Positions 10,731 through 61,798 of a DNA stretch of 64,000 bases are shown one piece after another. The stretch lies in the NCBI RefSeq assembly GCF_009914755.1, contig NC_060933.1; one strand, written 5' to 3'. Source of the DNA: the human T2T-CHM13v2.0 reference genome, Homo sapiens. A model generated the notes under the pieces. That model was not told the origin of the DNA, made no database searches, and saw only the letters and a program-made list of their open reading frames with translations. The position numbers and the translations under genes were made by a program. The stretch's first letter is position 1. Each line of letters starts with the position of its first letter.

Positions 10731-11630
10731 TCTTTTTATGGTAAAATACTGCATTCTTTCAAATTTTTGAAAGGGATGTAATCTGCTTCTGTTTGGTTCA
10801 GAGCATTCCTTTTTATTAGGGTTGGATGATTTGTACATTTACTATTTTTTAATACCTTCAGTATATATCCTGAAAAAAACAATTTCAGTATAAATTTTCC
10901 TGTATTCTTCAGTAAAAACATCAGCACTTCAAAAAAATTAAATATTATTTTAAAAATCGAGCATGAGATACTACAAAATCATGCCTTTATTTGGTAACCT
11001 GTTTTTGCTTCAGGACAAAATATATACAGGGCAAGTTACATACTACCAGTGGGCTTCCCTTCCCTTATCACTCAACTTGATCATATCCCAGGCCTTTTAC
11101 TTCCACTGCCCTAAGTTACTTGGTCATATAAAATAGAATAAAATTCTCAAACCTATAATTATGCTGAAATCAGAAGTCAAATTAAAACATACACAGAATT
11201 TCAATACCACTCTTGAGCCTAAAACAGAAAGTGTCAGCCTGTACCTGGAAAATGCATAAGGAAACATTAATAAACCTTAATAATAAACCTTAGTAATTAA
11301 TGTTACAAAAGTATACCCTAATGAAGCTTTCTAAAACACTATGCTTAGAACAACTTAAGAAAAGAATGCCCAACCTGAGAGGGAAAATTATAACTAAAGA
11401 TATATTTTATACTGTAACTGAGGAATAAAACTCTAGTTTTCTAGAATCTGGAAATATGCCTTTTATAAAAGAAATGGCATATTTCTTTACATAAGAAGGT
11501 GATTATCATCCCCCTTTCAGTTCCCCTTTCTCAGTTTCTTATTCCTCATTCTTTACCCTTCTCCTTCACCTGGTTTTCCTGTCTTCACTCCTCAGACCTC
11601 TGGGCTACTCATACTCAGACTTCCACTTTA

Positions 11631-11763
11631 AGCCAAGTGTGGTGGTGCATGCCTGTGATCCCAGCTCGCCTGTGGTCCCAGCTACTTGGGAGGCGGAGGT
11701 GAGAGGATGGCTTGCGCCCCGGAGTTCGAGGCCAGGTGGGCAACATAGCGAGATCCTGTCTCT
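11631..11763 (+). mobile_element. FLAM-type Alu monomer with a short internal duplication
   Basis: Single-arm Alu containing gcctgtgatcccagct-c-gcctgtggtcccagct. Confidence 0.8.
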
Positions 11764-21170: not shown

Positions 21171-22588
21171 CAGATTTGTGCTTCTTGTGTTTTGCTTTTT
21201 TTTTGATGATCAATAACTTATTCTGGATCTCAGGTTTGTAAGACTTGAATGCAAGAGAATGAAGACCTTCACGCTTTCTCTGTAAGTTTTCATTCAAAAC
21301 ATCTTTCAATTTCTTTTTTTTCTTTTTCTTCTTTTTTGCCCTCATTTTAGTTAGTTTGAGTTTCTTGTGGCTCTGTAGTGACTGCTCTAATAGAATATCC
21401 CTTACAACTTTGTGGCAGTTAATTTCTGGATGATCACTGTGACTTCCATTTACATGTATTTGGCAAGATTTTAGAGTATTTTCTTTTAATGGACTGGGTT
21501 CAATCTTTATTCTGGAAGCTTCACCGTATTTTTCCTGATTTTCTATAAACCTTATTTCACCTGGACTGAGAGGCTCTCCAAAGCCAGTAACTTCCCCTGG
21601 ACTCCTTGGTTTCTCTAAATTTTCTTTACAACAATCAGTTTTTTTAATTTCACAAGGCCTGCGAATTCTAATTTCATAGTTGGATTTTACTCCCATTTCA
21701 ACAGAGATGTCATGATTATCCAAGATCATTTTAGCAGGACAGCAAGCTGGATCAAAATTATTTTCCTGCTCTTTCTTGAAGGAAGAGGGCAGGCTATCTC
21801 TGCTACATCTATGTTCTCCATTACTTGTACTAACATAGTCACACTTCAATTTCTCCAATTTAATCCGAGGTACTCTTTGTATTTTAATGGGTGGAATTGG
21901 AAATTCTGGGGCCTGAAAGGGTCTCTGTTTATAAATCCGTACATCTGCACCACAGAACTGTGGAAAATGTACATAAGCATTCTCCAAATAATCATAACCA
22001 AGAATAACTTCCCTGCATTCATGGATAGGCTGTCCAAGTACAGCATCTTGAACTTCCTTTTGTGTTTCATACACAAAGTCACAAAGACCCTTAAGTAGCC
22101 ACACTTTTTGGTAAAAAGGTAGTTCGTGAAAAGGTTTTTCTTCCAATGGATTAACTTCTCCAAGAACTTTAAAAAACTGAGGACACAACCCCAGTTTTTC
22201 AGCACAGTTATCAGGATTTTCAGTTTGCCCTACAGCAGTGTACCACTGTTGTACTTTCTGCCTCAGCGCTGCTTCCCAGGTCCTATAAGGCAAAGTAGGT
22301 CTTCGATGTAAGGTAGGTCTGCGATGGGGAGGACTTAATAGAGAAGTCATTATTTTCGATAGAAAAGCATTACACTGAGGCATCAGAAGACAACGTTCCA
22401 GTTCGTAAAAGACTATTTCTGGCAAATTTAGAATTTGCTGAGCTAAACAAAGGAAATGCCCAATAGCTGGAATTTCCCACATGGTCTCCATACAAGTTGG
22501 AGCTGCTTGAGCTAGAAGTTTTCTTTCCCATTCTTCTATTTCCTTTTGACTAGCTTCTTCTGCTTCTTTTCTTTCCTGCTCCCGAAGC
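21171..22588 (-). CDS. BRD10: BRD10 coding exon 3 (1418 nt): DDT/WHIM-like helical module and Lys-rich region
   Basis: Acceptor ttctttag|G, donor CTG|GTAAGC. Lies within the 489-aa ORF; frame matches exon 2; ends in phase 1. Confidence 0.95.
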
Positions 22589-60332: not shown

Positions 60333-60925
60333 CGAGAGAGAAGCGCTAACTTCTGCTCCAGCATCATCTCCAGCTTCTGGCCCTGTTTGGAGATCCAGTG
60401 GTCCACTCCGTGCAGGCGGTAGCACGTCTCCAGCATCAACCTGAAGTCCGCCACGAACTCGGTGATGCCCCCGTACTGGCCGCTGGCGAACTTCTCTTCC
60501 ATCTGCAGCAGACACATGCCCTGTCCGGGCTGCTGCGGGAAGGCGCGACCGCCCCGGCCCCCGCTGCGCGGCCCTTCCGCCACCTCCTCCTCCGCGGTGG
60601 CAACGCCCCCCAAGGGCTGCAGAAAGGGGGCGGTGAGACCCCGGTGCTTCTCCTGCAGGAACTCGCCCAGGATGCGGTAGCCCTGCTGTAGCTCGTAGGT
60701 CAGCTCCTGCTCCTTGCAGCAACCGCCTCCGATCACCATCGCCTCCATCTCTTCCTCCTGATCGTCCGCGTCCTCCAGCGAGGAGGCACTCCTTCCGTGG
60801 GCCGGCCCTGAGGTCTGGGCCGCCGCTGCCACCTCCTCCTCGTCGTCCTCTCCTTCGGCCGCCGGTGGCGGCCGCTCTTCCTCCCCAGCCGGCTCCATCG
60901 CTCCCGGCGTCCCGGGCACACTCAT
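60333..60925 (-). CDS. BRD10: BRD10/KIAA2026 coding exon 1 (aa 1-198): acidic N-terminus plus atypical bromodomain
   Basis: ATG at 60925 (MSVPGTPGAMEPAGEEERPPP...). Bromodomain-like APFLQP...MCLLQMEEKFASGQY...FVADFRLMLETC. Donor TCG|GTAAGC at 60333/60332. 593 nt, ends in phase 2. Lies in the CpG island. Confidence 0.95.
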
Positions 60926-60963
60926 GCCCCGGCAGGCCTAGGCTGGGCGGTGTGGAACAGCCG

Positions 60964-61042
60964 CTCGAGGTGCTGGGGGACGCGTGAGCGCGAGCCGCTT
61001 CCTCACGGCTCGGCCGCGGCGCGTAGCCCCCGCCACATCGGG
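60964..61042 (+). ncRNA. MIR4665: MIR4665 annotated hairpin (5p ~60973-60995, 3p ~61009-61034), antisense to the BRD10 5' UTR
   Basis: Sequence CTCGAGGTGCTGGGGGACGCGTGAGCGCGAGC...CTCGGCCGCGGCGCGTAGCCCCCGCCACATCGGG matches my recall of hsa-mir-4665. The arms are complementary (GGGGGACGCG / CGCGTAGCCCCC). Whether it is a genuine miRNA is uncertain. Confidence 0.75.
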
Positions 61043-61609
61043 CCTGGCTCTCCTCAGCCGCCGGCTCGGCTCGGTGCGCGCGGGGGTCTTGAGCTCACCG
61101 CCGGCGGGGCGGGGTTACATGGCGCGCGAGGAGGGGGGAGAGAAGAGGAGAGCCTAGGTGCCCTCCTCTCCCCTCCCCCCCGGCGGCGGCGCGCGCACGG
61201 CCCTCGCCGGCCTCACCCCTCCGCACCCCGCCCGCCTGCTCTTCACCGGCCAGGCCCTGCCGGGTCGCCGCGGCCTCGGCGCCCCACCCCCTCCCGGGCC
61301 AGCGGGGGGCTGGGAGGGGGCGAGGAGGAAGGGGGTTCTCCTCTCCCCTCCCCGGAGGGGGCCGCAGCGGCGGCTCCGGCTCCTCCTCTCCCTCACACCC
61401 CCTCCCGCCCCCCTCTACCTGCGGGGGACACGGGCAGAAGGAGGCGGTGCACGGACGGGGCCCGGCGACAACTGTCAGTTAGAAGCCCCGCTGGGCGGTG
61501 AGGGGGGAGAAAGGGGAGGGGCAGGGAGAGAAGGGGGAGGGCACTCAGCCCCCCGGCTGGGAAGAGCTGTGGAGAGAAGCAAAGAAAGAGGCCCTGTCGC
61601 CATCCCCGG

Positions 61610-61798
61610 TGCGCATGCGTAGTAGAACAATTCCCCCCTCCCCCCCCGCCACCATCGTGCCCCGCCCCGCTACGCAAAAGGAAGAGCTTCGGCTCAGCTA
61701 CAGGCCCAGAAGCCTGCTAGGGTTGCGCGGACCAATGATGTAATCAATCGTAGGCCAATCGAACATGTTGATGGAGGGGGAAGCAAGGCGCCTGCGCA
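61610..61798. promoter_or_regulatory. Promoter motif cluster: NRF1-like TGCGCATGCGT (61610-61620) and GCGCCTGCGCA (61788-61798), GC box (61660-61668), CCAAT boxes (61732-61736, 61755-61759)
   Basis: Direct matches to known NRF1, Sp/KLF and NF-Y consensus motifs at the upstream edge of the CpG island. Confidence 0.7.

Follow-up and report, generated by a model that had tools for sequence, protein, structure and literature searches.

Human BRD10 combines an atypical bromodomain with histidine at the anchor position and a domain resembling the DDT-WHIM module

The 64,000-nucleotide stretch of human DNA analysed here (the window; T2T-CHM13v2.0, contig NC_060933.1) holds BRD10, or KIAA2026, a little-studied gene on its minus strand, to which all coordinates below refer. 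We find that the bromodomain of BRD10 has kept its fold while the residues that define an acetyl-lysine pocket have been exchanged, and that the vertebrate domain has probably lost acetyl-lysine binding and become a pseudo-reader. A second, helical domain further downstream resembles the module through which accessory subunits bind ISWI ATPases. As an overall picture, we consider it fairly likely that BRD10 carries a His-type pseudo-reader or scaffold, and that its DDT-WHIM-like domain, as predicted, lets it dock onto these ATPases.

Results

Residues ~75–196 of BRD10 are a bromodomain, well folded in the predicted model (aa 75–196, 60338..60703): model and structure matches point to the left-handed four-helix bundle αZ-αA-αB-αC of PF00439, and the human protein scores 28 bits against a curated Pfam cut-off of 21.7, within a range of weak scores among amniotes (19–28 bits). 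An earlier note, made from the DNA letters of this stretch, had described an atypical bromodomain with recognisable fold motifs, which the Pfam match and the model bear out. In the literature, the pocket is characterised by a conserved ZA-loop tyrosine (Y97 in BRD4), a P-φ-D motif and the anchor asparagine N140, with N135 of helix αB tying down the ZA loop (PMC3326523); exchanging the anchor Asn for Ala abolished binding (PMC3326523), as did Asn to Tyr in BAZ1A (PMC5636791).

Human BRD10 departs from this pattern. The ungapped alignment to BET BD2 places His172 (CAC, 60410..60412) in the anchor column at the end of αB, just as the earlier note had claimed, and Thr167 (60425..60427) at the position of N135; Thr at 167 turns up in amniotes only, and sharks have Ser. 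Phe129 (60539..60541) aligns with the position of the lost ZA tyrosine, which we take to be the member of the ZA pair equivalent to BRD4 Y97, but it is unconserved and sits in an expanded, Gly/Glu-rich ZA loop (aa 108–133, 60527..60604) modelled at a predicted local distance difference test (pLDDT) score below 50. The missing tyrosine had also been noticed before, and so had the reading of PMDL as GMCL, in which Pro and Asp of the PxD motif are gone. At the WPF-shelf position the human protein has Ala99-Pro100-Phe101 (60623..60631), the Trp having been lost in vertebrates. Since the anchor Asn has given way to His and the ZA Tyr is lost, acetyl reading is unlikely; BRD10 is a bromodomain by fold, and these two defining residues rule out the canonical reader class.

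The history of the pocket was followed in homologue searches, among them a first one with 120 of 141 matches listed, vertebrate wherever a species is given, and one with the amphioxus protein P0165 as query, for which 120 of 546 matches are listed, comprising 106 jawed-vertebrate and 14 invertebrate rows (3 amphioxus, 2 hemichordates, 2 starfish, 6 molluscs, 1 annelid). The vertebrate matches of these two listings were pooled into 216 rows with 142 distinct cores; isoforms repeat among them, some rows of the first search are counted as vertebrate on 53–100% identity, and D160 and R162 belonged to the anchor pattern used for the pooled rows, which no row failed. Among the matches listed, Asn, ZA Tyr and shelf Trp are present in 14/14 invertebrate rows, while position 172 in the 106 jawed-vertebrate rows is His in 97, Asn in 5, Tyr in 3 and Arg in 1; the best 120 of 141 matches in the first search gave His 112 and Tyr 8. 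Distant homologues that share the helical domain of BRD10 (all-representative search) mostly have Asn at the anchor.

Both the exchange of Asn for His and that of the WPF-shelf Trp for Ala, Thr, Ser or Gly extend across all jawed vertebrates and also occur in one basal row. The changes of αB Asn to Thr and of Pro to Gly belong to amniotes. In a quick tree built only from the helical domain (77 rows, without bootstrap), P0218, which has His and keeps the ZA Tyr, is sister to jawed vertebrates with a Shimodaira-Hasegawa-like approximate likelihood ratio (SH-aLRT) support of 95, and amphioxus falls outside. The ZA Tyr is kept in Latimeria, Acipenser, Polyodon, Lepisosteus and Amia, with a 20-residue loop in each one measured; it is gone from all sharks/rays, named teleosts and tetrapods shown. 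In these groups the length of the loop is variable, and in the human model it is of low confidence. The spacing from F to M across this loop is 36 in human, 20–22 in invertebrates (8/8 tabulated) and 14–40 in vertebrates. This distribution implies at least three losses of the tyrosine, apparently separate ones in sharks/rays, teleosts and tetrapods. Judging from these comparisons, the ancestral pocket was canonical; in vertebrates, loss of the Asn preceded that of the ZA Tyr, which disappeared from parallel lineages. In a separate five-row clade the anchor residues are His, His, Tyr, Phe and Asn, which means that animals have lost the anchor on at least two occasions.

The non-vertebrate homologues P0234, P0188, P0227, P0260 and P0219, whose anchor residue is His, Tyr or Phe, represent an independent loss; P0227 also has a C2H2-finger-like match (E value 0.001, under the cut-off). 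Apparent reversions from His to Asn, with the ZA Tyr absent, occur in P0124, P0276, P0331, P0336 and P0348 (softshell turtle, hummingbird, three parrots).

In the pooled vertebrate rows, position 172 is His in 200, Tyr in 10, Asn in 5 and Arg in 1. His172 is conserved, yet less so than its neighbours G173, D175, H176 and W177, which are identical in 216/216 rows together with S179, Q181, Q183, K184, E186, E190, Q191, K192 and L193. These invariant, largely polar residues fall within the BC loop and helix αC (Gly173-Leu193, 60347..60409), and 24 of the 60 positions from 136 to 195 are identical throughout, many of them polar. Ile178, at the sixth position after the anchor, presumably the gatekeeper, is I, L or V in all 216, and His176 is in register with a BET-BD2 histidine. 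His172 has been replaced in at least seven named lineages: by Asn in Pelodiscus, one hummingbird and three parrots, by Tyr in Apus, Microcaecilia and killifish-group fishes, and by Arg in Theristicus, all of them single-base neighbours of the His codons. Four further residues within one base of a His codon, Gln, Leu, Pro and Asp, are seen at 172 in none of the 216 rows, suggesting that some constraint is left, perhaps for helix capping. Across the homologues, the pattern is better explained by a decayed pocket in a domain preserved for some other surface than by a new ligand specific to His, and the invariant polar residues of αB, the BC loop and αC are likely to form a binding surface.

The Pfam domain KIAA2026_hel and the β-hairpin that follows it (21865-22497) resemble the DDT-WHIM1-WSD module; this region lies beyond the span of the earlier note, which did not register it. 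DDT-like helices at the start of KIAA2026_hel (aa ~297–352, 22327..22494) are suggested by Pfam, Atlas and the AF2 model: Pfam DDT appears at the expected place with an E value of 0.24, in 1 of 27 homologues only, and the Atlas structure rows carry DDT, with a template modelling (TM) score of 0.61 to DDT/WHIM proteins; known DDT exons gave no match to the BRD10 sub-profile. The WHIM1-like motif (aa ~404–454, 22021..22173) scored under the Pfam cut-off in 2 of 27 homologues (E values 0.0057 and 0.13), and is identified in BRD10 by sub-profile matches to a presumed CECR2 exon (26.3 bits, shuffle maximum 10.1) and to a Pfam-WHIM1 exon on C7, presumably of BAZ1B (E value 4e-4). A WHIM2/WSD-like β-hairpin motif (aa ~451–488, 21919..22032) has three predicted strands and a weak collinear match, the best hit on chr22 being the frame that comes directly after the WHIM1 match (11.3 bits, shuffle maximum 9.6); WSD clusters head the Atlas feature list (0.86). 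The whole domain also matches the fold of yeast Ioc3. In the model, residues 296–490 are thus structurally like DDT/WHIM/WSD proteins, and homology of the helical domain to DDT-WHIM is very likely. From this homology we would lean slightly towards binding of BRD10 to SMARCA5/SMARCA1.

Lysine-rich tracts follow the helical domain (~21240-21370, aa ~673–755) and overlap the reported nuclear localisation signal and DZIP1-binding peptides. Inclusion of an alternative exon (11570-11681), whose 112 bases are not divisible by three, would change the reading frame past the helical domain. The 5' untranslated region (60926-61620; 695 bases) is GC-rich, contains MIR4665 in antisense, and has upstream ATGs at 61616, 61603, 61120 and 61038 that open reading frames of 23, 42, 1 and 11 codons.

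Discussion

The earlier note left open whether this domain is a pseudo-reader or a reader of another ligand. The former gains support from the canonical invertebrate pocket and the ensuing losses of Asn and Tyr; the latter is weakened because His172 is less conserved than its neighbours and drifts to Asn, Tyr or Arg. A new specificity conferred by His172, for an acidic acyl mark, phosphate, nucleic acid or a metal shared with His176 and Cys168, could explain why His arose once near the vertebrate base and again in non-vertebrate rows, and why jawed vertebrates came to have an invariant G-V-D-H-W loop beside it, with W177 in 216/216 rows as opposed to 2/14 in invertebrates. However, residue 172 itself has changed in at least seven named lineages, to single-base neighbours, where these neighbouring residues never do, and we regard such a specificity as improbable. 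A functionless vestige, to which freely drifting pocket residues, a drifting ZA loop and weak amniote Pfam scores might point, is largely refuted by the invariant, often polar positions between 136 and 195, and hardly merits credence.

Less remote, though still unlikely, is a low-affinity acetyl-lysine reader of acetylated tubulin or histones, in which the His imidazole replaces the Asn amide as hydrogen-bond donor. His predominates at 172 and the gatekeeper register is hydrophobic; Thr- and Tyr-type domains have been described as able in principle to hydrogen-bond, the atypical bromodomains PHIP BD2 and TRIM33α can still bind acetyl-lysine, and tubulin co-immunoprecipitates with full-length BRD10 (PMC13705004). 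Such activity would be most plausible in the fishes that retain both the ZA Tyr and the 20-residue loop, namely coelacanth, gar, bowfin and sturgeons. In human, however, the pocket's ZA wall shows no conservation and has low model confidence, Tyr, αB Asn and shelf Trp are all gone, and Tyr or Arg is tolerated at 172. Because atypical bromodomains can bind acetyl-lysine, the insensitivity to inhibitors that the earlier note expected is no firmer than a presumption. For the helical domain, a calponin-homology-like tubulin-binding module would make BRD10 a ciliary or microtubule scaffold with a passive pseudo-reader and no ISWI partner. The matches behind this idea span only ~100–120 residues at 9–16% identity and omit the β-hairpin, sequence and Atlas evidence favour DDT/WHIM/WSD, and BRD10 is enriched in the nucleus and has two predicted nuclear localisation signals (PMC13705004), all of which makes it rather improbable.

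Returning to a pseudo-reader next to an ISWI-binding module, we propose that the early-animal bromodomain of BRD10 would have been a BET-BD2-like acetyl reader, coupled in the ancestral protein to the ISWI-binding module, and that in vertebrates targeting may have been uncoupled from acetylation, the pseudo-reader being retained as a protein-interaction or scaffold module. As its domain after the bromodomain resembles DDT-WHIM1-WSD, BRD10 may be an unrecognised ISWI accessory subunit. The most specific version, in which human ISWI remodellers (SMARCA5/SMARCA1) have BRD10 as a regulatory subunit that has been overlooked and that defines a further complex, and the former BET-BD2-like domain binds a fixed partner through its invariant αB/BC/αC face, is a serious possibility that we would put just short of even.

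BRD10 owes its name to a machine-learned Pfam match (PMC12807706) and has been listed as a 'reader' (PMC9522521). The sole functional paper found (PMC13705004) proposes bromodomain-mediated anchoring to acetylated tubulin; it reports basal-body and nuclear staining, DZIP1 binding to aa ~603–726, and co-immunoprecipitation of acetylated tubulin with the full-length protein, attributed to the bromodomain without mapping, and the words 'asparagine' and 'histidine' do not occur in its main text. Our pocket analysis makes this mechanism doubtful, and directly testable. In the literature searched, which lay outside subscription journals, database entries and Aravind and Iyer 2012, we found no description of the His substitution or of the DDT-WHIM module, nor, partly by title and abstract, an experimental report of BRD10-ISWI binding. 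BRD10 is among the candidate genes for 9p deletion and shows an excess of de novo variants (PMC11974940); if its module binds ISWI, it would join remodelling complexes already tied to neurodevelopmental disease. The domain also offers a natural series from reader to pseudo-reader, with the pocket intact in amphioxus, His plus Tyr in gar and coelacanth, and His without Tyr in mammals.

Among known systems, the BET BD2 domains (BRD2/3/4/T) are the closest in sequence and fold: the alignment from αA to αC is ungapped, both have a His four residues after the anchor, and invertebrate BRD10 shares the WPF shelf and ZA-loop pattern. Human BRD10 differs in His for Asn, Thr for the αB Asn, the absent ZA Tyr, APF for WPF, GMC for PMD, and a ZA loop that exceeds the amphioxus one by 14 residues; unlike BET proteins, it has a single bromodomain, and Pfam found no ET domain. 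It shares a bromodomain fold lacking the anchor Asn with PHIP/BRWD, TRIM28, MLL1/KMT2A and TRIM33α; the MLL1 bromodomain acts on the adjoining PHD3 rather than by acetyl-lysine binding (PMC8303718). Of the 13 non-canonical human bromodomains described, 12 have Thr or Tyr (PMC9594046) and that of MLL has Asp (PMC3326523); the His of BRD10 is not among the types listed, and KIAA2026 is not mentioned in the main text of the 61-domain census (PMC3326523). Compared with these cases, the loss in BRD10 is datable and can be traced stepwise. With CECR2, RSF1, BAZ1A/B, BAZ2A/B, BPTF and yeast Ioc3, BRD10 shares a DDT-WHIM1-WSD-like module in the same order, and with ISWI accessory subunits a bromodomain in the same chain and nuclear localisation. 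In known ISWI accessory subunits the bromodomain lies C-terminal to the module, as in CECR2, whereas in BRD10 it is N-terminal; Pfam finds no PHD in BRD10, its DDT and WHIM matches fall below Pfam cut-offs, and ~70 extra residues separate the DDT-like and WHIM1-like parts. Since ISWI binding is only predicted and the DDT and WSD matches are weak, we do not class BRD10 as an ISWI subunit, but its anatomy is that of an ISWI-accessory-like protein.
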